Source: Candidatus Aminicenantes bacterium (GTDB lineage Bacteria > Acidobacteriota > Aminicenantia > UBA2199). Taken from it: 54,418 bases of DNA. Below the pieces are notes generated by a model. The model was not told where the DNA came from. It made no database searches and was given only the letters and a program-made list of their open reading frames with translations. The DNA is taken from assembly GCA_026393795.1 (NCBI GenBank), contig JAPKZL010000284.1, forward strand, positions 1-54,418. Direction: 5' to 3'. The translations under genes and the position numbers were made by a program. Positions 3,687-30,466 of the stretch are shown piece after piece. How positions within the stretch are numbered: the first letter of the stretch is position 1; every line of letters begins with the position of its first letter.

Positions 3687-3968
3687 ATGAATAAAAAATA
3701 CCTGGCTGAAGAAATCGCCAAGCGCATCTCTATAAAAAAATATGAGGCCTACAATTTTATCGACCTGTTCATTGAAGTCGCGTTGGAAAATCTTGGTCAA
3801 GGTCGCAAACTGGTCCTTTCCAAGTTCGGAACCTTGATCATCAAAAAGAAAAATAAAAAGAGGGTCATCAATCCGATCACCCGTCAGCCCATGATCATTG
3901 CCCCGACCAAAATAGTCAAATTCATCCCGGCGGAGAACTTGAAGCGCAAGTTTGAGGGAAATGGTTGA
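3687..3968 (+). CDS. HU/IHF-family DNA-binding protein (divergent, Lys-rich)
   Basis: AGGAGG SD. The FGTL..K..K.R...NP.T beta-arm pattern is present. Confidence 0.7.
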   Translation: MNKKYLAEEIAKRISIKKYEAYNFIDLFIEVALENLGQGRKLVLSKFGTLIIKKKNKKRVINPITRQPMIIAPTKIVKFIPAENLKRKFEGNG

Positions 3969-5049
3969 GTTCAATGAAGGGCATTTAAAACGGGTCGCTT
4001 TTCACCTGCTGACTTTTAAAAACCCAAGAGCCAGGCTCCATCTGCTTAAAAACAAGGTCAGCGCCGCCGATTTTTTTTGCCTGGGAGCGCGGCAGCTGGA
4101 GCTGATCGGTCTTCAGCCGGCCGAAATCAAGGCCATGAGCGAACGCGGCTGGGGTGTTGCCGAAAACGAGGTGGCGCGGCTGGAAAAAAATGGGCTGCAA
4201 ATCATTTTCAGCGAGGAGGAAGACTTTCCTCCCTTGCTGGGACAAATCTACGATCCCCCCGACCTGATCTATTTTACCGGCAATCGGGAATTTTTGCGCA
4301 AGAAGAAGCTGGCCGTTGTCGGTTCGCGGCGCGGGGGCGCCTACGGCCAGAGCGCCTTGAACCGCATCCTGCCCGACTGCTGCCGGGCGGGGCTGGTCAT
4401 TGTTTCCGGCATGGCCTACGGCATCGATTCCATGGCCCACAAGCTGGCGGTCAGGGAAAACAGCGGCACCATCGGCGTCAATGCCGGCGGCTTGCTGCAT
4501 CTGTATCCCCAGGGCAATCTGGCCTTGATTAAAAAGATCATCGATTCTGGCGGCATCATCAGCGAATTTCCCCTGGACGTAATCCCGCGGCCGTTTCTCT
4601 TTCCCATCCGCAATCGCATCATCGCCGGTATTTCCCAGGCGGTTCTGGTCGTGGAAGCGGCGCTGCGCAGCGGTTCGCTGATCACGGCCAGGCTCGCCCT
4701 GGAGCAAAACCGCGAGGTGATGGCAGTCCCGGGCAACATCGATTCCTCCCTGAGCCAGGGGACGAATTACCTGCTGCAGCAAGGCGCCAAATTAATCCAA
4801 AACTCCGTTGATTTGCTCGACGAGTTCGGGCTGAGCTGCCCGCTGCGGCCGCGAAATGAGGCGGTGCTCTCTTTCAGGGAAAAGAAAATACTTGACTTGT
4901 GCGGGGAAAATGAGTTAAAAGGTATCGACTTTTTGGTGGATGCGCTCGATTGGCCGGCAGCGGAAATCATCTCGCTTTGCATGGGATTGGTTTTGAAAAA
5001 TCTGCTGGTTGAAGAAACGGGCGGCTACCGAAGGATGGCGTATGGCTAA
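3961..5049 (+). CDS. dprA: DNA-processing protein DprA (Smf)
   Basis: VGSRRGGAYG...SGMAYGIDSMAHK...FPIRNRIIAG...VVEAALRSGSLITA. ATG at 3961; the track start at 3952 is a TTG. Confidence 0.85.
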   Translation: MVEFNEGHLKRVAFHLLTFKNPRARLHLLKNKVSAADFFCLGARQLELIGLQPAEIKAMSERGWGVAENEVARLEKNGLQIIFSEEEDFPPLLGQIYDPPDLIYFTGNREFLRKKKLAVVGSRRGGAYGQSALNRILPDCCRAGLVIVSGMAYGIDSMAHKLAVRENSGTIGVNAGGLLHLYPQGNLALIKKIIDSGGIISEFPLDVIPRPFLFPIRNRIIAGISQAVLVVEAALRSGSLITARLALEQNREVMAVPGNIDSSLSQGTNYLLQQGAKLIQNSVDLLDEFGLSCPLRPRNEAVLSFREKKILDLCGENELKGIDFLVDALDWPAAEIISLCMGLVLKNLLVEETGGYRRMAYG

Positions 5050-7135
5050 AAAAACGTTGGTGATTGTCGAATCTCCCGCCAAGTCGAATACGATCTCCAA
5101 GTATCTGGGCGACGGGTACATGATCGGGTCGTCGATGGGGCACGTCCGCGACCTGCCGGTCGAGGTCCTGGGAATTGACGTGAAGAACAATTACAAGCCT
5201 TTTTACGTCGATTTGCCCGGGAAAGCGCAGGTGATCAAGGATTTGCGCCAGCTGGCGCAAAAAGCGGACAAGATCCTGCTGGCGTCGGACCCGGATCGCG
5301 AAGGCGAAGCCATCGCTTTTCATCTGCAGGAAATTCTCAAAAAGGACAACGAGAATATCTTCCGGGTGCTTTTCAACGAAATCACCCGCTCCGCCATCCT
5401 GGCGGCGGTCGAAAATCCCTTGACCATCGACCCGCGCAAGGTCGATTCCCAGCAGATGCGCCGCTTGCTCGACCGCCTGGCCGGGTACAAGATCAGTCCG
5501 GTCCTGCAGAGAAAAATCGGCGGGCCGCTGTCGGCCGGGCGCGTGCAATCGATTGCCCTGAAACTGATCGTGGAAAGGGAAAAGGAAATCAGGGCCTTTG
5601 TTTCCGAAGAATACTGGACCGTCGCCGTCGAGCTGGAAGGAAGCCAGCCGCCCGCCTTTACCAGCAAGCTGGAAAAATGCGACGGCAAAAACGTGGCCAT
5701 CGTCTCCGGCGATGCCTGCACAGTCGTTCTGGACGAATTAAGGGCCAATCCCTATTGCCTCGACCGCATCCAGAAGAAGCTGAAAAAACGCAAACCCCTG
5801 CCGCCGTTGATCACTTCGACCCTGCAGCAAGAGGCCTTCCGCCGCTTCAAGTTCCCGGTAAAGAAAACGATGCAACTGGCCCAGCAGCTGTACGAAGGGG
5901 TGAACATTCACGGCGGCGAGACCACCGGTTTGATCACCTACATGCGCACCGATTCCTTCCGCATCGCGGACCAGGCCCGCGACCAGGCCCGCGAGTGGAT
6001 CGTCGCCAACCTGGGCAAGAAGTTTTACCCGGCCGCGGCCAACACCTTCAAGAAGAAAGCCAAAATCCAGGATGCCCACGAATGCATCCGTCCCACCACC
6101 CCCTTTCACGCCCCGGACGGCATCAAGGCCGATCTGAACCCGAGCCAGCTGAAGATCTACCAGCTGATCTGGGAGCGTTTTTTCGCCTCGCAGATGGCGG
6201 CGGCCGAAATCGAGGAAACCCAATTTGATGTCCGCAACGGCCGCTACCTGTTCGTGACCAAGGGCGAGATCGTCAAGTTCAAGGGCTTCCTGGCCATGGC
6301 CAAGGGCGAGAGCGAGCAGACCGTCCTGCCGCTGCTGCAGGAAAAGGAGATCCTGAAATTGCTCGCCAGCGACGACAAGCAGAATTTCACCAAACCGCCG
6401 GCCCGCTACAACGAGGCGTCGCTGGTGAAGGTGCTGGAGGAAAAAGGCATCGGCCGCCCCTCCACCTACGCCAAGATCATCGAGACGCTCAACAAGCGCG
6501 AATACGTGTACAGCGAGGAGAAGAAATTCGTTCCCACCGATTTGGGCATCAATGTCGTCGATTACCTGGAAGAGAATTTCAAGGACATCATGAACTTCAA
6601 TTTCACCGCCGAACTGGAAAAGAAACTCGACCAGGTGGCCGAAGGCGAGCTGGACTGGGTGACCGGGATCGACCAGTTCTACAAGAAACTGGCGCTGGAC
6701 CTGGCCAAGGTCAAGGACGGGAAAAAGGTGGAGCTGCTGACCGGGGAAAAATGTCCGAACTGCGGCGGCGGCCTGCTTAAAAAATATTCCCTTAAAACCA
6801 GGGGTTGGTTCATCGGCTGCTCCCGCTACCCGCAATGCACCTACACGGCGCGGGTCACGCTCAAAGACGAAAAGATCAGCCCCGACGAGATCCAGGAAAA
6901 GAAATGCCCCCTGTGCGCCAAGCCGTTGATCAAGAGGTATTCGCGCAAAACCGGGCAATACTTTATTGGCTGTTCGGGTTTTCCGGCCTGCACGCATATC
7001 GAGACCAGCCAGGAGGATTTGGGCGCCTGCCCCCAGTGCGGCAAGCCCCTGACCAAAAGATTCTCGCGCAAGACCAGGCGCTATTTTGTCGGCTGTACCG
7101 GTTACCCTGAATGCAGGTTCATCCAGAAAAGGTGA
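5042..7135 (+). CDS. topA: DNA topoisomerase I with four C-terminal Cys4 zinc ribbons
   Basis: TOPRIM start LVIVESPAKS, catalytic region ITYMRTDS, repeated CPxCG...GCSxxPxC modules. Confidence 0.95.
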   Translation: MAKKTLVIVESPAKSNTISKYLGDGYMIGSSMGHVRDLPVEVLGIDVKNNYKPFYVDLPGKAQVIKDLRQLAQKADKILLASDPDREGEAIAFHLQEILKKDNENIFRVLFNEITRSAILAAVENPLTIDPRKVDSQQMRRLLDRLAGYKISPVLQRKIGGPLSAGRVQSIALKLIVEREKEIRAFVSEEYWTVAVELEGSQPPAFTSKLEKCDGKNVAIVSGDACTVVLDELRANPYCLDRIQKKLKKRKPLPPLITSTLQQEAFRRFKFPVKKTMQLAQQLYEGVNIHGGETTGLITYMRTDSFRIADQARDQAREWIVANLGKKFYPAAANTFKKKAKIQDAHECIRPTTPFHAPDGIKADLNPSQLKIYQLIWERFFASQMAAAEIEETQFDVRNGRYLFVTKGEIVKFKGFLAMAKGESEQTVLPLLQEKEILKLLASDDKQNFTKPPARYNEASLVKVLEEKGIGRPSTYAKIIETLNKREYVYSEEKKFVPTDLGINVVDYLEENFKDIMNFNFTAELEKKLDQVAEGELDWVTGIDQFYKKLALDLAKVKDGKKVELLTGEKCPNCGGGLLKKYSLKTRGWFIGCSRYPQCTYTARVTLKDEKISPDEIQEKKCPLCAKPLIKRYSRKTGQYFIGCSGFPACTHIETSQEDLGACPQCGKPLTKRFSRKTRRYFVGCTGYPECRFIQKR

Positions 7136-21995: not shown

Positions 21996-23201
21996 TCACT
22001 GCAGCTTGCCGAGCAGGTGCCCCATTTTCTCTTTCTTGGTTTTCATGTAGGCCAGGTTTTCCTTGTTGGGCGCGACTTCCAGGGGGATGCGCTCGGCGAT
22101 TTCCAGTCCATAACCGGCCAGGGCGATGTACTTGGCCGGGTTGTTGGTGATCAATTTCAGCTTTTTCAGCCCCATGTGGCGCAGGATCTGGGCGCCGATC
22201 CCGTAATCGCGCTGGTCGGCCTTGAAGCCGAGCTTGACGTTGGCCTGGATGGTGTCCAGCCCCTCCTCTTGCAGCCTGTAGGCCTTGATCTTGTTGAGCA
22301 GGCCGATGCCGCGCCCCTCCTGGTTGACCAGGTAGAGCAGGACGCCCCGCTTTTCCCGGCTGATCATTTCCATGGCGTATTGCAGCTGCTTGCCGCAATC
22401 GCAGCGCAGCGAGGCGAACGTATCCCCGGTCAGGCATTGGGAATGGACCCTGACCAGCACGGCTTCATCTCCGCTCAAATCGCCCTGGGTCAAGGCGATG
22501 TGCGTCTCCTGCTGGATGTGGTCGACGAAAGCGTGGATGGAGAACTCCCCCCAGCGGGTGGGCAGCTTGGCTTCGGCCACCATTTCGACCAAGGAGTCGG
22601 TGCTGACCCGGTACTTGATGATCTCTTCAACGGTGATGATCGGGATGGAGAATTTTTTTGAGAATTCGATCAGATCGGGCATCCGGGCCATGGTGCCGTC
22701 TTCCTTCATGATCTCGCAGATGACGCCGGCCGGGTAAAGGCCGGCGATCTTGGCCAGGTCGACCGACGCTTCGGTTTGCCCGGTTCGCACCAGTACGCCG
22801 CCGTCCCTGGCCCGCAATGGGAAAATATGGCCGGGGCGCGAGAGGTCCTGGGGCGTGGTCGTTTCGGCGATCAGGCACTGGATGGTGACGGCGCGGTCAT
22901 AGGCGGAAATCCCGGTGGTGGTATTGCGCTTGGCGTCGACCGAAACGGTGAACGGGGTTTGGAAGTGCGAGGTATTGTCGTGGACCATCAGCGGCAGGTC
23001 GAGTTCATCGCTGCGTTTTTCGGTCAGGGAGACGCAGATCAAGCCGCGGGCCTCCTTGGCCATGAAATTGACGCTTTCCGCCGTGACCTTTTCGGCGGCG
23101 ATCATCAGGTCGCCCTCGTTCTCGCGCTGCTCGTCATCGACGATGATGAGCATTTTCCCCTCTTTCAGGGTGGCGACGGCTTCGGGGACGGTAATGGTCA
23201 T
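21996..23201 (-). CDS. ribBA: bifunctional 3,4-dihydroxy-2-butanone-4-phosphate synthase / GTP cyclohydrolase II
   Basis: IIVDDEQRENEGDL (RibB) and VRVHSQCLTGD...CDCG (RibA). Confidence 0.95.
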   Translation of the reverse strand: MTITVPEAVATLKEGKMLIIVDDEQRENEGDLMIAAEKVTAESVNFMAKEARGLICVSLTEKRSDELDLPLMVHDNTSHFQTPFTVSVDAKRNTTTGISAYDRAVTIQCLIAETTTPQDLSRPGHIFPLRARDGGVLVRTGQTEASVDLAKIAGLYPAGVICEIMKEDGTMARMPDLIEFSKKFSIPIITVEEIIKYRVSTDSLVEMVAEAKLPTRWGEFSIHAFVDHIQQETHIALTQGDLSGDEAVLVRVHSQCLTGDTFASLRCDCGKQLQYAMEMISREKRGVLLYLVNQEGRGIGLLNKIKAYRLQEEGLDTIQANVKLGFKADQRDYGIGAQILRHMGLKKLKLITNNPAKYIALAGYGLEIAERIPLEVAPNKENLAYMKTKKEKMGHLLGKLQ

Positions 23202-23238
23202 TTATCTTATCCTGCCTTGATTTGCCATTTTCACCGCC

Positions 23239-23267
23239 ATTATATGGCAAACGAATATGCAAGGCAA
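23239..23267 (-). promoter_or_regulatory. sigma70-like promoter TTGCCT-17-TATAAT for ribBA at the island edge
   Basis: Read on the - strand: -35 at 23262-23267, -10 at 23239-23244, with an AGGA SD before the ATG at 23201. Confidence 0.45.
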
Positions 23268-23384
23268 GCAAATGCTGTTTTCAACCTAACATAAATCAAT
23301 ATTTTTCTGGAATTTTATGATTTATCTGCAAACAATATAAGGAACCTGATTTTTAAATCGAACCGGATATGGCGTTTATCCTGG

Positions 23385-23573
23385 AATGTTAAAAAGGTTC
23401 AGGCGCATACCAAGATCCGTATCCTTTCTTATTTTGTTATGGACAACCAATACCATGTAGCGCTACAGCAGGGCTCACTAAGCTACAAGATTTCAAGAAT
23501 ACAAGAACCGTCCCTCGATTCCCGATTCCACGAGACCGAAACTGAAAAGATGTATTCGAGTTTCCAGATGTGA
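23385..23573 (+). pseudogene. relic of a Y1 (IS200/RAYT-like) transposase ORF
   Basis: The frame reads ...AHTKIRILSYFVMDNQYHVALQQGSLSYKISRIQ..., which resembles the (h)xAYxLMxNHxHLL core of PF01797-type proteins. There is no N-terminal HUH region and no start codon, and the first His is Q. Confidence 0.35.
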
Positions 23574-23666
23574 GAGCATGATGAGAAGATCATCGTGTTG
23601 CCCCAAAAAAATGCAAACTAAAAAGGTTTGTTAAAACTGATTTAAAACTATTCCTTTGCGCAATTC

Positions 23667-24044
23667 TTATTGTTGTTCTTCAAGGATCGCATTCACGTGA
23701 TCTTGGTCGAGAGAATACCAGGAGCCAGTGGCTGCATCGATAATAACGGGAACAAGGCCAGCCAAAATATCAAGGATGATCCAGCCTGCACCAACGGAAC
23801 TTGAAATGTTTCGAGTGACTGTTTCATAACCCTCTTTTTTAAATTCGAGAGTATAGGTCTTGCTGGACTTCAACCGTAAAGTGATCGGGGTTTTCCCAAA
23901 TAGCTCGCCATTGACATAAACCTTTGCTCCAGATGGATCGGAAGAAGCATCGAGGCTGCTGTTACTGCCTTTGAAAATTGCAGCACAACCAGAAAAAGCA
24001 ATAGAGATGCAGACCAATAGCATGACAGTTACGATTTTTCTCAT
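23667..24044 (-). CDS. PEGA-domain lipoprotein
   Basis: Lipobox AFSGC, PSGAKVYVNGELFGKTPITL PEGA motif, hydrophobic C-terminal segment, AAGGAGA SD. AT-rich codon usage. Confidence 0.75.
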   Translation of the reverse strand: MRKIVTVMLLVCISIAFSGCAAIFKGSNSSLDASSDPSGAKVYVNGELFGKTPITLRLKSSKTYTLEFKKEGYETVTRNISSSVGAGWIILDILAGLVPVIIDAATGSWYSLDQDHVNAILEEQQ

Positions 24045-24099
24045 TGTTACTCTCCTTATAATTTTTGCAGTTGATTTTAATCACTTGCTGATAAAAATA

Positions 24100-24127
24100 A
24101 TAATAGCAATTCAGAATAAATTTTCAA
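24100..24127 (-). promoter_or_regulatory. sigma70-like promoter TTGAAA-16-TATTAT for the PEGA gene
   Basis: -35 at 24122-24127, -10 at 24100-24105 (- strand). Confidence 0.4.
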
Positions 24128-24237
24128 GTGAAGTAAGCATTTTATCGGTCAAAAAAACTATAAAATTTTTCATGGGCCAAAAAAAGGCCCAAATCGGTTT
24201 CGACTTGGAATTGAAAAACTAGGAAACGCTGTGTTGG

Positions 24238-24273
24238 CAAGCGCACCCGGCAAGGCTCGAACCTGCAGCCTGC
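24238..24273 (-). repeat. tRNA 3'-half-like fragment, copy A (T-arm + 3' acceptor strand, no 5' half)
   Basis: The - strand reads GCAGG-TTCGAGC-CTTGC-CGGGTGC-G. It matches copy B at 32 of 36 positions. Confidence 0.6.
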
Positions 24274-24381
24274 CCCGTCCCGATCGAAAACGAGATGAAG
24301 AAACTATACCCGAGCTACGAGGTCTGGGACCCGGAGAACAAGATCATCGAGTTCCCAATTAGAATTGGTAGCTGACGGTTA

Positions 24382-25008
24382 CTATTTAATGAAACAAGCG
24401 ATATCAGAGCTGTCTAAAACATCGACATTGTCTTTTAATTCACTATAGACACCATGATTGAGAGTTAGAAGAACAACTTGGATCCCCTGTCTCCTCGCAA
24501 GTTTTATCGCCGGAATAAAATCGGAATCTCCAGTTACAATAATTATTCTATCGGCGATGTGTTGGTAGCTTATCCATGCGATATCTATTCCAATTTTAAT
24601 GTCGACTCCTTTTTGATGGATGTCGTATTTATAATCACTTTCCTTAAATGCACCGCTTGTACTTGGCTTGACATTTTCCCTTAGTTTCCATCCTTTTACA
24701 CTTAATTTCCCCTCCCTTACAGCAAAAAAATCTGTTCTCTTTAATTCATGCAGTAGTTTAATTCCATTGGCATATTCTTTCGATGATTTTAAATTGATTT
24801 TTTTTAGAGAGATCGGGTTGGTGAGTGTTTCATCTGAAGGAGGACAATCATAATAATACACTCGAAGCAAGTCGAAGTCTTTTGCATGCTTATCGTGAAC
24901 ATTTTTTATAAATTCTTGGACCTTTTTTGCATTTGTTGGAGCCTTTTTTTTTGGTTCAAACTTTTTTTTAAAAAATCCCCCATCAATCATTATGATCGAT
25001 TTACTCAT
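24382..25008 (-). CDS. NYN-domain (LabA/DUF88, PIN-like) putative ribonuclease
   Basis: IMIDGGFF, GVDIKIGIDI and IIIVTGDSDFIPAIKLARRQG, so the acidic residues are intact. GGAGAGA SD lies before the ATG at 25008. The GTG start at 25041 falls inside a leader hairpin. Confidence 0.8.
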   Translation of the reverse strand: MSKSIIMIDGGFFKKKFEPKKKAPTNAKKVQEFIKNVHDKHAKDFDLLRVYYYDCPPSDETLTNPISLKKINLKSSKEYANGIKLLHELKRTDFFAVREGKLSVKGWKLRENVKPSTSGAFKESDYKYDIHQKGVDIKIGIDIAWISYQHIADRIIIVTGDSDFIPAIKLARRQGIQVVLLTLNHGVYSELKDNVDVLDSSDIACFIK

Positions 25009-25017
25009 TTTCTCTCC

Positions 25018-25072
25018 AAAAAAAAAGGCCTCCGGGGACACCCGAAAGTGTTTAGATAAACCCCGTTGGCCT
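25018..25072 (-). terminator. intrinsic-terminator-like hairpin + U9 between the NYN promoter and its SD
   Basis: The - strand reads AGGCCAACGGGG-[23 nt]-CCCCGGAGGCCT-U9. That gives 10 bp with a 2x2 internal loop and an inner ACAC/GTGT helix. Confidence 0.5.
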
Positions 25073-25087
25073 AAGTCTTATGTACTT

Positions 25088-25116
25088 CTTATATATTGGT
25101 TCTGACTAATTGTCAA
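25088..25116 (-). promoter_or_regulatory. sigma70-like promoter TTGACA-17-TATAAG for the NYN gene
   Basis: -35 at 25111-25116, -10 at 25088-25093 (- strand). Confidence 0.5.
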
Positions 25117-25214
25117 CATTTTTTTTGCAATTTTCTTTATTTTTATTTACTGCCCAAAAACTACCCCAAACTTATTTTACGAATGAATTAGAAAATCCGA
25201 AAACGCAGACCTGA

Positions 25215-25250
25215 CAAGCGCACCCGGCAGGAATCGAACCAGCAGCCTGC
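25215..25250 (-). repeat. tRNA 3'-half-like fragment, copy B, 3 nt after the ribE stop
   Basis: The - strand reads GCTGG-TTCGATT-CCTGC-CGGGTGC-G, with the same acceptor strand as copy A. The sequence upstream is ribE coding, so there is no 5' half. Confidence 0.6.
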
Positions 25251-25253
25251 TGA

Positions 25254-25847
25254 TTAGAGTTTAGAATGCTTTTGGAAATTATATAGGTATTTGCCGATTA
25301 AATCAAGCTCGATGTTGACCCGCTGGCCGACCCGAAGCAAGCGCAGGTTGGTGCTGGCCAGGGTGTGGGGGATGATCTCCACCGCAAACCAGGACTCGCT
25401 GACTTCGGCGACGGTCAGGCTGACGCCGTTCAGGGCCACCGAGCCCCGTTCCACGATGAACTTTCGCCACTCCCTGTCGAGGAAAGAGAAATCGAAGCGT
25501 GAGTTCTGGTCGCCCTTGTTCAGTGCGCGCACCCGGACCGTGCCGTCGATGTGGCCGCTGACCAGGTGCCCGCCCAAAAGGCCGTTCGGTGTCACCGGGA
25601 ACTCGATGTTCAGAAGCGCGCCGAGGGGCAGGTCGCCCAGGTTGGCGAGGCGCAAGGTGGGCGCTGCCAGGTTGAAGCGCAGCAGGTCGTTGTTTTTTTC
25701 TATCAGGGTCAGGCAGACGCCGTTGACGGCCAACGAGTCACCCACGGCGAGCGGCTTGTCCAAGGCGGCGCGGACGGTCAGGATGGGCTGGTTCTTTTTT
25801 TCCAGCTTGACCAGGGCGGCGGTGGCTGCGATCAGGCCGGTGAACAT
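25254..25847 (-). CDS. ribE: riboflavin synthase (alpha chain)
   Basis: MFTGLI start and duplicated GDSLAVNGVCLT / GSVALNGVSLTV barrels. Confidence 0.9.
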   Translation of the reverse strand: MFTGLIAATAALVKLEKKNQPILTVRAALDKPLAVGDSLAVNGVCLTLIEKNNDLLRFNLAAPTLRLANLGDLPLGALLNIEFPVTPNGLLGGHLVSGHIDGTVRVRALNKGDQNSRFDFSFLDREWRKFIVERGSVALNGVSLTVAEVSESWFAVEIIPHTLASTNLRLLRVGQRVNIELDLIGKYLYNFQKHSKL

Positions 25848-26950
25848 GAGGGAAAACCTCGCAGGATATGCCCCGCCGTCAATTCGATTTGTTCGCAAGC
25901 TGCCAGGCGCAGCGCCTGCGCCAGGCTGGCGCTCCCCGATTCATAGAGCTGCACCGAGGCCTTGCCGCCGATGAGGCGCCGGGAGATAAAGAGAATGACC
26001 TCGTCGAACAATCGCTGCCTGATGAAGGAATCGATGGTTTTTCCCCCGCCCTCGACCAGGACGGAAGCGATGCCGATGCGCTGGAGCGTCGCCAGCACCT
26101 CGCCCAAGATCAAGCCTTCGCTGTTTTCATTGACGAAAAAATGGCGGGGGACCTTCTGCGTCCGGTCGGCCGCCTTGCGGGAGCTGAAAATGATCAGCGG
26201 GAACTGCTCCTGCTCCTGGAAAACATGGAGGCGTTGCGAAAGGGAATTTTGTGTGTCGAGGACCACCCGGTAAAGGACCTTGTTGTTCCAGCCGGGCTCG
26301 CGCAGCGTCAGGCGCGGGTTGTCGGCAACGACGGTGTTGCGGCCGGCCAGAATGGCCGAAAACTCCCCGCGCAGGCTGTGGGACAACTGCCGCGATTCCG
26401 CTTCCGTGATCCAGCGCGAATGGCCGTTTTTGTCGGTCAGCTTGCCGTCAAGCGAGACTCCGGCATGGATGGCGACATAAGGCATCCGGGCCTTGACCGC
26501 TTTCAAATAGTGGCGGTTGATATGGGCGGCCCAATCGGGGCAGACTCCGCTGCACACCTCGATGTCGCTGTGGCGGAGCCGCTCCATGCCGCGGCCGTTG
26601 ACCAGGGGATTGGGATCGCCGATGGCCGCGACCACGCGGCTTACTTTTTTGGCGATGATCAATTCGCTGCAAGGGGGCGTTTTGCCGAAATGGGAGCAGG
26701 GCTCCAGGGTTAGGTACAACGTCGTTCCGGGGACATGCACGTTTTCCAGGGCCATGGCTTCGGCGTGCGCTCGGCCATATGCCCGATGATAGCCGGTGGA
26801 CACTATTTTGCCGTTTTTGACCACCACGGCGCCGACCATCGGGTTCGGCTCGGTACGGCCCATGCCCAGCAGGCTCAATTTCAAGGCGATTTTCATGAAT
26901 TTTTCGTCTTCTTTTTGCCGGCGCGACAGGGAAACGGTTCTCGTTTTCAT
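25832..26950 (-). CDS. ribD: bifunctional diaminohydroxyphosphoribosylaminopyrimidine deaminase / 5-amino-6-(5-phosphoribosylamino)uracil reductase
   Basis: HAEAMAL and TLEPCSHFGKTPPC deaminase motifs plus a C-terminal reductase domain. ATGA overlap with the ftsY stop. Confidence 0.9.
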   Translation of the reverse strand: MKTRTVSLSRRQKEDEKFMKIALKLSLLGMGRTEPNPMVGAVVVKNGKIVSTGYHRAYGRAHAEAMALENVHVPGTTLYLTLEPCSHFGKTPPCSELIIAKKVSRVVAAIGDPNPLVNGRGMERLRHSDIEVCSGVCPDWAAHINRHYLKAVKARMPYVAIHAGVSLDGKLTDKNGHSRWITEAESRQLSHSLRGEFSAILAGRNTVVADNPRLTLREPGWNNKVLYRVVLDTQNSLSQRLHVFQEQEQFPLIIFSSRKAADRTQKVPRHFFVNENSEGLILGEVLATLQRIGIASVLVEGGGKTIDSFIRQRLFDEVILFISRRLIGGKASVQLYESGSASLAQALRLAACEQIELTAGHILRGFPSCSPA

Positions 26951-29529: not shown

Positions 29530-29907
29530 TCATAATGATAAAAGGGTTATTTTTAGCCCTTTTTTCGCGAACAATTTGAAATGGTGGTCCATGGTGAGGA
29601 TCTCCGCGCAGCCGGCGTTGACGAAGGAGCTGATGATGAACGCGTCAAATGCGGGCATGCCGGTCGTTTGCGCCACTTGGCCCGCCTGCAAGGCGGCAGC
29701 AGTGGTTATGGGCACGACTTCTACGGCTTTGGCGATATCTTCCAGAACGGTGGGCCAGGTTTTTAAATCGCCTTTTAGCAGTCTTTTTTTAAGTTCATAA
29801 AAGCAAAGAACCGAAGTAAGGAGTTCACGGTTCTCCCAAGCCTCCACCGCGGCCGAATGGCCGGCGGCCAGGGCATAGAAATAACTGGTGTCAATCCCGG
29901 TCAGCAT
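29530..29907 (-). CDS. vapC: PIN-domain toxin VapC
   Basis: MLTGIDTSYF (N-terminal Asp), FDAFIISS, ILTMDHHF. Confidence 0.8.
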   Translation of the reverse strand: MLTGIDTSYFYALAAGHSAAVEAWENRELLTSVLCFYELKKRLLKGDLKTWPTVLEDIAKAVEVVPITTAAALQAGQVAQTTGMPAFDAFIISSFVNAGCAEILTMDHHFKLFAKKGLKITLLSL

Positions 29908-30130
29908 CGGCTTTCGTCCTTTCGCGATGGAGCGTTTCCCAGTCTGCGGGCGCGATGGCCTGGCGGATGTGCGCCATGATCCGCTTCCTGGCATCGGTCA
30001 TTTCGTTGCTCCTGAGGTATTCCTCCACGGCGCGGCTGATGATCCGCGAGACGGGGATGTCCCCGGAGCTGGCCCTGGCGCGCACCGCCTCCAGGACTTC
30101 TTTCTTCAGGTAAAAGCTCACTGCCGGCAT
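29891..30130 (-). CDS. vapB: ribbon-helix-helix (CopG-like) antitoxin VapB
   Basis: MPAVSFYLKKEVLEAVRA beta-strand start. 17-nt overlap with vapC. GGAG SD. Confidence 0.7.
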   Translation of the reverse strand: MPAVSFYLKKEVLEAVRARASSGDIPVSRIISRAVEEYLRSNEMTDARKRIMAHIRQAIAPADWETLHRERTKADADRD

Positions 30131-30146
30131 TTTTTTCTCCACTAAT

Positions 30147-30175
30147 ATAATATCATAATATGATATGATTTTCAA
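30147..30175 (-). promoter_or_regulatory. vapBC promoter TTGAAA-17-TATTAT with embedded 8-1-8 palindromic operator
   Basis: -35 at 30170-30175, -10 at 30147-30152. The perfect inverted repeat ATATCATA-A-TATGATAT lies at 30150-30166. Confidence 0.55.
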
Positions 30176-30206
30176 CAAAAAAATGCGCATGTTAAATAAA
30201 GTACTT

Positions 30207-30466
30207 GGTTGACGGTAGACGGTGTACGGTTGACGGAAAGAAAAAGGAGTTATGCGAAATTCCAAACTCCAAATACCAAATCCCAAATAAGCACCAAGCA
30301 CCAATGACCAAAATCGTATGCAATTGAAAGAGGTTTTTTGTGAATTTCGAAAAGGTGATTTCGTTTGGATCATTGGAATTTGGAGCTTGGAATTTGTTTG
30401 GAAATTGGTGCTTGGGATTTCGTGCTTATTTCCTCACCGTAAACCGTTTGCCGTGTACCGTAAACC
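30207..30466. repeat. 260-bp imperfect palindromic element built from phased heptamer repeats
   Basis: Left arm: 4x nnnACGG (30209-30236), then 4x nnCCAAA plus GCACCAA units (30260-30313). Right arm mirrors it: TTTGG/TTGG heptamers (30364-30420) and 4x CCGTnnn (30437-30464). The ACGG and CCGT blocks are exactly symmetric about 30336/30337. Confidence 0.75.

Follow-up and report, generated by a model that had tools for sequence, protein, structure and literature searches.

A probable decayed island of phage-like elements in an insertion hotspot between ribE and ribBA of a Candidatus Aminicenantes bacterium

The riboflavin genes ribD, ribE and ribBA lie on the minus strand of a 54,418-nt stretch of DNA from Candidatus Aminicenantes bacterium (GenBank assembly GCA_026393795.1, contig JAPKZL010000284.1), hereafter the window. 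Between ribE and ribBA stands a low-GC segment of 2.05 kb (23202-25253), which is probably a decayed composite island of phage-like integrative elements lodged in a hotspot at the 3′ end of ribE. Comparison with related loci shows that this 3′ end is a lineage-specific recurrent insertion hotspot, empty in some genomes and occupied by unrelated DNA in others. The island consists of two decayed tandem units, each made of an attachment (att) fragment, a cargo gene and an integrase stub. The two cargo genes encode a NYN-domain protein and a PEGA-domain lipoprotein, and their membership in phrog_5783 and phrog_6823, respectively, indicates a phage origin for both.

The ribE-ribBA site in the window and in related loci

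The GC content of the segment is 0.386, against 0.565 in the remaining window. In 2-kb sliding profiles, 23201-25200 has the lowest GC content (0.380, z = -5.15; runner-up, z = -1.86) and the largest tetranucleotide distance from the window profile (z = +7.04; runner-up, +1.79). An earlier note on this DNA, made from the sequence alone, had described a foreign insert of about 2 kb parting ribE from ribBA, while allowing that the region might prove to be no outlier for the genome. The latter is rejected by both profiles, and the insert is borne out by its composition and by relatives with an empty site. Judged by composition, 23202-25253 is the sole clear accessory segment of the window. The calls of the three flanking rib genes, all on the minus strand, were upheld by Pfam:

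21996-23201, minus strand: ribBA, 3,4-dihydroxy-2-butanone 4-phosphate (DHBP) synthase / GTP cyclohydrolase II (DHBP_synthase and GTP_cyclohydro2, 5e-86 and 2.5e-72)
25254-25847, minus strand: ribE, riboflavin synthase (Lum_binding, 1e-39)
25832-26950, minus strand: ribD (confirmed by Pfam)

Scans with RibE gave three genomes and 12 metagenome contigs with RibE identities of 71-89%. The related loci, which are designated by L-numbers, are all metagenomic contigs or metagenome-assembled genomes (MAGs). The gene order ftsY-ribD-ribE...ribBA-HEAT-tyrS is kept in relatives wherever the contig is long enough, and 16 related loci share the ftsY-ribD-ribE...ribBA synteny or the ribE end. Three of them are empty and 13 are occupied, the latter corresponding to 12 distinct inserts because L022 duplicates L014. 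At the empty sites (L016, L017 and L020), the ribE stop abuts the ribBA ATG with the flanking synteny unchanged, ribE ends in ...NF(S/F/Y)xxxKGRI(R/K/T) and a stop, and the ribosome-binding site of ribBA, AAAGGCAGGA, sits within ribE. In distant phyla the gap between the two genes is 40-180 nt (L009, L011 and L025), reaching about 540 nt in a Spirochaetia MAG (L010).

The inserts at occupied sites have GC contents of 0.31-0.50, against 0.60-0.65 in their flanks. They measure 0.85 kb in L006, 3.1 kb in L014 and 4.1 kb in L007, and exceed 3.6 kb in L008, 4.5 kb in L015, 7.6 kb in L019 and 8 kb in L023. According to blastn among the inserts, their DNA is mutually unrelated, apart from one relic of about 150 nt. 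Their cargo is as follows:

L008: Shedu SduA (1e-15) and an HNH protein (ZorE-like)
L007: PDC-S34 (4e-59) and an 825-amino-acid P-loop protein
L014 (= L022): SoFic (3e-40) and a CAP-domain protein
L013: Abi_alpha / PDC-S47 (7e-26)
L019: a CAP12-type TIR protein (1e-27), a PD-T4-6/mad6-type kinase and an Hsp70-like protein
L006 and L021: small lipoproteins
L023 (320-8316, at least 8 kb): NTP_transf_5, an ABC transporter, two family-2 glycosyltransferases, an HPr-kinase-like protein and PMT_2

The cargo of the relatives is rich in known defence genes; the sole match of the window to a defence model is a partial one to the PADLOC NYN model (1e-8). Neither NYN nor PEGA genes were found among the cargo of the other rib-locus inserts. 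The gene set of L023 looks like a cluster for ribosomally synthesized and post-translationally modified peptides or for glycosylation, hence the hotspot is not limited to defence genes.

On a tree of ribD and ribE, empty and occupied genomes are interspersed, and the empty L017 is 88-93% identical to the occupied L007, L015 and L019. Because of this interspersion and of the unrelated cargo, the ribE-ribBA site is a hotspot rather than the scene of a single event. The insertion proposed in the earlier note thus stands as to its foreign nature but not as a one-off event, since the cargo differs in each relative. The spacer might instead have been ancestral and never inserted, or an assembly chimera, a reading that is hardly credible. 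All sequences are metagenomic and 13 of the 16 related loci have some spacer there. However, the existence of empty-site relatives and the mutually unrelated spacer contents reject the same low-GC 2 kb being shared across deep branches. In addition, a Logan contig of independent origin (L001, SRR20698647) agrees without a difference with 23097-25305 and so covers both junctions, and part of the segment, described below as the PEGA unit, has close homologues in foreign low-GC contigs.

Comparison of the junctions with 15 relatives places the acquired DNA at about 23227-25274, so that the island bounds first given, 23202-25253, hold roughly but not at their exact ends. The ribE codons up to ...YLYNF (to 25275) are common to all relatives. 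The last seven codons, QKHSKL and the stop (25254-25274), are derived from the island and take the place of the ancestral ...KGRIR end. The new terminus, ...NFQK(H/Q)x and a stop, is found in all occupied loci except L019, and in the window its TAA stop falls in the anticodon-loop part of a tRNA-like fragment. The other side of the insert ends as follows:

23202-23270, minus strand: right island edge, composed of the block CTTGCCTTGC-N-TTTGCCATATAAT and a relic of the old ribE 3′ end

Inside the right-edge block, a promoter scan found TTGCCT-17-TATAAT at 23267-23239, in agreement with the separate ribBA promoter that had been proposed at the island edge. The block, as CTTGCCTTGC-N-TTTGCC(C/A)TATAAT, is conserved in the window, L006, L007 and L014. 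The relic, GGCAAAT..AGGCAGGATAAGATAA, occupies the 25 nt before the ribBA ATG (23226-23202) and carries the Shine-Dalgarno (SD) sequence of ribBA. The final 18 nt before the ATG are identical to the ribE end of the empty-site L016 and are preceded by the GGCAAAT remnant. In L007, a direct repeat of about 25 nt from the ribE 3′ end, GG(C/T)AAAT..C.ATATAATTTT, stands on either side of the 4.1-kb island, and its right-hand copy continues into a near-exact copy of the ribE terminus of the empty-site L017. The insertion point is placed about 50 nt before the old ribE stop because of the sequence shared with L016, the GGCAAAT remnant and the repeat of L007.

Some further features of the junctions were observed. 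In L007, an open reading frame (ORF; 4980-5158, MENQCWIKQAG...) starts just past the island-edge promoter, continues without a change of frame into what is left of the old ribE C-terminus (...GKFQYNFFKTNKGRIK and a stop) and stops at the ribBA ATG. A comparable short ORF is present in L014 (MKNQNWIAREAG...), and both may preserve translational coupling to ribBA. The 3′ coding end of ribE (LDLIGKYLYN; 25278-25306, minus strand) itself reads TTGATT-17-TATAAT, which in empty-site relatives lies about 35 nt upstream of the ribBA ATG and may act there as an internal promoter. The promoter block of the island edge may be a diverged duplicate of this sequence, as the CTTG...TATAAT spacing is the same.

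Outside the island, the ribD start (26947-26950) overlaps the ftsY stop, and ribDE therefore appear to be expressed within the ftsY operon. The gene after ribBA encodes a HEAT-repeat protein and not ribH. A scan of the whole 54-kb window and of the island with Rfam gave no family at gathering score and no flavin mononucleotide (FMN) riboswitch. Exact-sequence look-up of RibE, in 197- and 214-amino-acid forms, returned no record. The stretch of second-lowest GC content, 29530-30373 (minus strand), holds overlapping small ORFs of 154 (29530-29994) and 160 amino acids (29891-30373), which by eye resemble a PIN-type toxin with an upstream antitoxin.

Attachment fragments, integrase stubs and cargo units

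Read in the direction of the rib genes, the order is ribE, att remnant A, NYN, integrase stub, att remnant B, PEGA, integrase stub, an older relic, the promoter and ribBA. The components of the island are:

25185-25258, minus strand: att remnant A, tRNA-Arg(UCU) 3′ part with anticodon loop CTCTAA, and hairpin-forming trailer
24382-25008, minus strand: gene for a NYN-domain protein of 208 amino acids, a predicted metal-dependent endoribonuclease (PF01936, 2e-10, 41.7 bits, cut-off 24.2)
24241-24375, plus strand: integrase relic 1 (the "GC-rich patch"), reading ...AHPARLEPAAC joined to PVPIENEMKKLYPSYEVWDPENKIIEFPIRIGS and a stop
24188-24275, minus strand: att remnant B, tRNA-Arg(UCU) 3′ fragment (24238-24275), trailer, and terminator-like hairpin with T-run (24209-24188)
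24100-24127, minus strand: PEGA promoter-like site, TTGAAA-16-(TG)TATTAT
23667-24044, minus strand: gene for a PEGA-domain lipoprotein of 125 amino acids (PF08308, 1e-13, 51.1 bits, cut-off 20.8)
23532-23615, plus strand: integrase relic 2, reading ETETEKMYSSFQM, a stop and EHDEKIIVLPQKNAN, convergent with PEGA (tblastn with P0243, P0245 and P0246; BLASTP)
23558-24273, minus strand: the PEGA unit as a whole (att fragment, promoter, PEGA gene, integrase stub), delimited by DNA identity to L026 and L027
23348-23526, plus strand: older relic, reading ...ILSYFVMDNQYHVAL..., a candidate fragment of an HUH/Y1 (repetitive extragenic palindrome, REP, -associated) transposase

The NYN gene is bracketed by direct repeats of 66 nt (24208-24273 and 25185-25250), which are 77% identical and 977 nt apart. 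The 17-nt core of the repeat has three matches at up to three mismatches, against 0.42 expected. The repeats had been noticed for their likeness to tRNA 3′ ends, and their alignment with tRNA-Arg(tct) does extend from the anticodon loop as far as the acceptor end: each corresponds to the 3′ part of tRNA-Arg(UCU), in which the anticodon loop reads CT(T)CTAA and which further takes in the 3′ strand of the anticodon stem, the variable loop, the T-arm and the 3′ strand of the acceptor stem, and each is followed by a hairpin-forming trailer. Six copies of the fragment can be aligned: the window and L027 have two each, L026 has one, and in L013 (the closest relative of the window) one directly follows ribE. 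They align as well with real tRNA-Arg(tct) genes called by ARAGORN in L031 and L032. In the latter two loci, 75 nt separate the intact tRNA-Arg(tct) from a relic of the integrase family represented in the window (L031 2524-2994; L032 867-1337), and this locus is probably the natural attachment site of the element family left in the window. The tRNA-Arg(tct) is followed there by tRNA-Pro(tgg), on a GC-rich contig. Scans of viral contigs for the tRNA-like repeat gave no match. The repeat was also considered as a dif/Xer site and rejected, as GGTGCGC alone matches such a site.

The GC-rich patch next to the NYN gene had been taken for host sequence trapped between two insertion events. A phmmer search with it against 1.84 billion representative proteins found P0243 (E 9e-5), a 265-amino-acid Phage_integrase protein (PF00589, 1e-21; phrog_1 integrase, 9e-40), whose last 42 residues, from the GHSS...Y catalytic-tyrosine motif, align with the patch at 48% (pairwise E 8e-14). 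With tblastn, the match is placed at 24241-24366. The stub comprises the last ~33 codons of a tyrosine integrase, and related stubs are P0245 and P0246. The 5′ third of the relic is the antisense of att remnant B, and its stop lies 6 nt from that of NYN, the two being convergent. Since an integrase C-terminal stub is joined here to an antisense att fragment, the patch is not host DNA, and the earlier statement that the segment has no integrase gives way to two C-terminal relics of tyrosine integrases (24241-24366 and 23532-23615) with no intact gene. Further stubs stand just after PEGA in L026 and L027, at another position in L027, and after the TIR gene of L019. The viral contigs, when scanned with P0243, gave distant integrases only. 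A derivation of the patch from ribE was rejected, the only shared stretch, IEFP, being due to chance. Folded as single RNAs, neither the patch nor the ribE-NYN spacer is significant (z = -1.7 and -1.1).

The second unit carries the PEGA gene. As had been proposed, both cargo genes have a GGAG-type ribosome-binding site and the PEGA gene has its own promoter, here found by the scan. The N-terminus of the protein, MRKIVTVMLLVCISIAFSGC, contains a lipobox read by eye as ...AFSGC, and a hydrophobic segment lies at the C-terminus. PEGA matches phrog_6823 (8.5e-17) and belongs to a large and well-conserved family with 300 homologues, the closest being 87-93% identical. The DNA of the unit is 79% identical over 733 nt to L026 and 78% identical to L027, both of them wholly low-GC contigs (0.26-0.42) that are not at the rib locus. 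The unit thus appears from its DNA to have been transferred as one piece, and its identity of about 79% to uniformly low-GC contigs explains the foreign composition. In L027, tRNA-Arg-like fragments at 1816-1888 and 3689-3725 bracket a PEGA gene, an integrase stub and a gene for 293 amino acids, the tandem-unit design of the window in a low-GC contig. By association, PEGA would be a surface accessory gene, possibly for exclusion.

The two cargo genes are adjacent, on the same strand, both intact and both of phage families, and they could have been acquired jointly as a nuclease with its membrane sensor or anchor. Such a two-gene module is very improbable. An integrase stub, an att fragment, a terminator-like hairpin and a separate promoter stand between NYN and PEGA; NYN occurs without PEGA in four contexts (L002/L003, L004, L005 and L197) and PEGA without NYN in two (L026 and L027); the PEGA unit alone is 79% identical to L026, and the other rib-locus inserts have neither gene. 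Hence the cargo is not a module: NYN and PEGA are independent genes and are not neighbours in the other contexts sampled.

The older relic (23348-23526) is the sole insert sequence common to the window, L006, L014/L022 and L015 according to blastn among the inserts. It had been described as a Y1/IS200-like transposase relic, a claim reduced here to resemblance at the level of a motif, as the translations ...FVMDNQYHVAL (window) and ...CVMNNHCHLVL (L015) recall the HUH motif and the best match, of the L015 copy to NCBIfam REP_Tyr_transpos over this motif, is not significant (E = 0.095). Were the identification right, an IS200/IS605-type (Y1/HUH) transposon could have first opened the site and made the split, for which the sharing of the relic among these inserts would speak. 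This origin is improbable: searches of Pfam, PDB and plasmids with the relic gave no significant match, the relic is absent from L007, L008, L019 and L023, no subterminal hairpin ends were identified, and a target duplication such as that of L007 is not made by Y1 elements.

In the reading preferred here, that of integrative elements stacked in the hotspot, the ribE stop abutted the ribBA ATG in the ancestral state, with the ribBA ribosome-binding site inside ribE, as at the empty sites. Foreign DNA would then have integrated about 50 nt before the old ribE stop, bringing the replacement end ...NFQKHx and its stop, and its other edge would have left the promoter block that now drives ribBA. 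Elements with tyrosine integrases specific for tRNA-Arg(UCU), whose relics are seen in the window, would have piled up in tandem. The first att fragment deposited perhaps served as a secondary landing site, and L013 keeps such a fragment with other cargo. The elements would later have been deleted down to the selected cargo. As a result, ribDE transcripts, coupled to ftsY, would end inside the island, ribBA would be transcribed independently from TTGCCT-17-TATAAT, and PEGA would have its own promoter and terminator.

Several points weigh against this history. Site-specific integration has to be read from relics, because ARAGORN found no intact tRNA or transfer-messenger RNA in the window or in any related rib locus, and no intact integrase is present in them either; the intact, regenerated target tRNA gene expected at the end of an island is thus missing at the rib loci. 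Traces of tRNA or integrase are seen in just three occupied rib loci (the window, L013 and L019), the ribE 3′ end resembles the tRNA-Arg anticodon arm only loosely, and the closest NYN homologues (L002-L005) have no flanking att or integrase relics. The older relic, possibly of Y1 type, suggests a different first occupant. The relatives carry inconsistent taxonomic labels. Lastly, a plain deletion could have brought integrase stub 1 next to the tRNA fragment. The alternative to a later deletion is an attP inside the integrase gene, as in Mx8- or SSV-like elements, at which recombination could have joined the stub to att remnant B.

Cargo might also have turned over through homologous recombination, following DNA uptake, in the flanking core genes (ribE/ribD and ribBA), a mechanism proposed for many defence-island hotspots; the relics of tRNA and integrase would then be passengers rather than the means of integration. 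Such a turnover is possible, if on balance doubtful. The flanks are conserved while the cargo is unrelated, the occupied loci have the new ribE end in common and four of them the right-edge block as if whole occupied alleles had been swapped, occupied and empty sites are interspersed on the ribDE tree, and no insert has an intact recombinase. However, L007 retains its own old ribE 3′ end as the direct repeat of about 25 nt, which allelic replacement would erase, and site-specific integration has its signature in the tandem arrangement of units with att fragment, cargo and integrase stub.

The NYN gene, its leader RNA and its phage relatives

The NYN protein has a full-length match to phrog_5783 (6e-55). 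Its homologues, about 200 in number and 205-209 amino acids long, reach 65% identity at best and come from MAGs labelled Treponema, Synergistaceae and Phycisphaerae, in varying contexts. The aspartates D9, D136, D161 and D163 are invariant. An AlphaFold2 (AF2) model has a pLDDT (predicted local distance difference test) of 96.3, with VPA0982 (2qip) and the MARF1 NYN domain as top Foldseek matches; a sequence search of PDB gave no match. The protein is hence predicted from sequence and model to be a ribonuclease of a phage protein family. The gene is preceded by a promoter and a structured leader:

25116-25088, minus strand: candidate NYN promoter, TTGACA (25116-25111), 17-nt spacer, TATAAG (25093-25088), read from the sequence
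25018-25083, minus strand: NYN leader, with 5′ box ACATAAGAC, hairpin (25027-25071), U9 tract (25018-25026), and SD GGAGAG at 25012-25017

The candidate promoter agrees with the proposal that NYN has one of its own. It was missed by the promoter scan, which accepts only -10 hexamers that end in T (position 6). In L002, L195, L004 and L005, the leader is likewise preceded by TTGACA and TATAAT-like boxes. The hairpin reads GGCC-AA-CGGGG, a 9-nt bulge UUUAUCUAA, ACAC-loop-GUGU and CCCCG-GA-GGCC. The leader has the shape of a terminator or attenuator, and the scan reported a terminator-like site within it (25048-25029).

The same architecture stands before the NYN homologues of L002 (~1650-1715), L195, L004, L005 and L197. 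The shared design comprises an outer stem, a 2x2 internal loop (not in the shorter hairpin of L197), GGG/CCC pairs, a 5′ bulge of 9-10 nt (UU.AU.UAA), an ACAC/GUGU hairpin and a U-tract. The stem shows compensatory changes (CGGGG/CCCCG, CAGGG/CCCTG, TTAGGG/CCCTAA and GGGCTGGG/CCCAGCCC), and the individual folds adopt the same shape each, with z = -3.9 to -5.4 against shuffles. The evidence for this leader is that of single-sequence folds, as MAFFT/RNAalifold misaligned the outer stem of the six sequences. In a repeat search of 22500-26000, no tandem array was found upstream of NYN, the leader being a single hairpin. The pattern TAAACAC-N6-GTGTCCC was also tried on viral contigs; none of its 80 matches adjoins a NYN gene, and they were put down to chance.

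NYN relatives are also found in phages, where IMG/VR holds 162, of which 80 were kept for the locus counts given here (L035-L114); for about 33 of the 80, a contig end is no more than 1.5 kb away. Sampled neighbours include tyrosine integrases (L041, L050, L053 and L083), a serine recombinase (L037), a helix-turn-helix (HTH) repressor (L041) and an endolysin (L058). Streptococcus phage Javan85 has NYN as gene 2, preceded by the repressor and followed by the integrase. The window protein is 31-41% identical to the phage NYN proteins and belongs to the same phrog_5783. By this association, NYN would be an accessory gene of the lysogeny module of temperate phages, which fits its position in the window between an att fragment and an integrase stub. 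Because its phage relatives lie between repressor and integrase and the family is a phage family, the gene of the window may be read as a prophage-type RNA-nuclease accessory gene, serving immunity, abortive infection or lysogeny control.

Upstream of the phage NYN genes, Rfam detects Teg147 (RF03535) with up to 80.9 bits. Teg147 is a bona fide small RNA of S. aureus, 60 nt long and without an assigned function (PMC5826253), for which a sarcin-ricin loop is predicted (PMC13085918). No paper describing an association of Teg147 RNA with a NYN gene was found. A model built from 19 phage leader copies (R1) matches directly upstream of NYN in 68 of the 80 viral loci and in Javan85 (L198 2414-2478), and the Teg147-like RNA lies about 15-100 nt upstream of position 1501 in L035-L114. 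In most cases the NYN gene behind it adjoins the integrase. The phage leaders covary strongly, with 96.3% of cells paired and double changes in 13 of 14 pairs, a level reached in 0 of 500 shuffles.

The leader of the window is matched neither by an Rfam covariance scan of 22900-25600 at E <= 5, Teg147 included, nor by model R1, and it is for this reason assigned to a second, previously undescribed class. NYN would be transcribed from TTGACA-17-TATAAG through this terminator-shaped leader, which probably keeps the nuclease low or gates it. A speculative and rather unlikely extension is that NYN and its leader form one RNA-nuclease module, carried by temperate phages beside their integrases, in which the short terminated RNA, of the Teg147 class in phages and of the second class in the window and five other loci, would act as antitoxin, sensor or attenuator and the RNase would be released on superinfection or induction. 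The association of NYN with a leader RNA is the most novel element of the island.

Relation to known systems and significance

The kind of island is itself well known, being the remnant of a tRNA-type integrative island in a hotspot flanked by core genes. Islands and prophages that tyrosine integrases insert into tRNA or tmRNA genes are catalogued in Islander; such islands restore the target that they split, and their end is marked by the fragment displaced (PMC4383910). The replacement end of ribE is likened to this regeneration. As in these islands, the window has direct repeats of a tRNA 3′ part that start in the anticodon loop, adjoining remnants of tyrosine integrases, a foreign composition, tandem accretion and cargo beside att. 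Unlike them, it is not at a tRNA gene and has no intact tRNA, its integrases are stubs of about 30 codons, and its chromosomal target is a protein-coding gene (ribE, at the 3′ end).

Defence hotspots flanked by core genes are known from the E. coli pan-genome (PMC10121019) and from Pseudomonas aeruginosa (PMC10250203). The rib site shares with them the fixed flanks, the empty and occupied alleles, the nearly genome-specific cargo and its anti-phage content (Shedu, SoFic, PDC-S34, Abi_alpha, TIR, kinase), whereas the cargo of the window has only the weak match to the PADLOC NYN model. It differs by its location inside a biosynthetic operon of an uncultured lineage, between translationally coupled genes, and in that occupation needed a replacement gene end and a new promoter.

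Compared with the Javan85-type pair of NYN and Teg147, the window has the same protein family, the adjacency to an integrase and a terminator-ended RNA before the ribosome-binding site, but its leader is of another hairpin class without sarcin-ricin-type internal loops, and its integrase neighbour is convergent and decayed. Type III toxin-antitoxin systems (ToxIN) have a layout of promoter, structured RNA ending in an intrinsic terminator and endoribonuclease gene, on mobile DNA. The NYN locus resembles them, by analogy only, in its succession of promoter, terminated RNA and RNase gene; it differs from them in having no tandem RNA repeats, and NYN is unrelated to ToxN.

The site represents a hotspot for accessory and defence genes that lies within an operon for vitamin biosynthesis in an uncultured lineage, and empty as well as occupied alleles are available. 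Its visible repairs, a new gene end and a new promoter, make it a natural example of an operon that tolerates the insertion of an island, and the hotspot is a place to mine for candidate defence genes. The fusion of tRNA-Arg att fragments with integrase stubs accounts both for the integrase that seemed to be missing and for the GC patch that was taken for host DNA. The model of tRNA-Arg-specific elements would be backed by an attP identical to the tRNA-Arg 3′ part, whereas an attP matching GGCAAATACCTATATAATTT would mean a dedicated ribE-targeting element. As a by-product of the analysis, phrog_5783 is linked to the covarying Teg147 RNA, a second class of leader is revealed, and a lead is provided to a phage-borne RNA-nuclease system. 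If that system were to prove true, both an orphan Rfam family and a widespread phage gene would gain a function.

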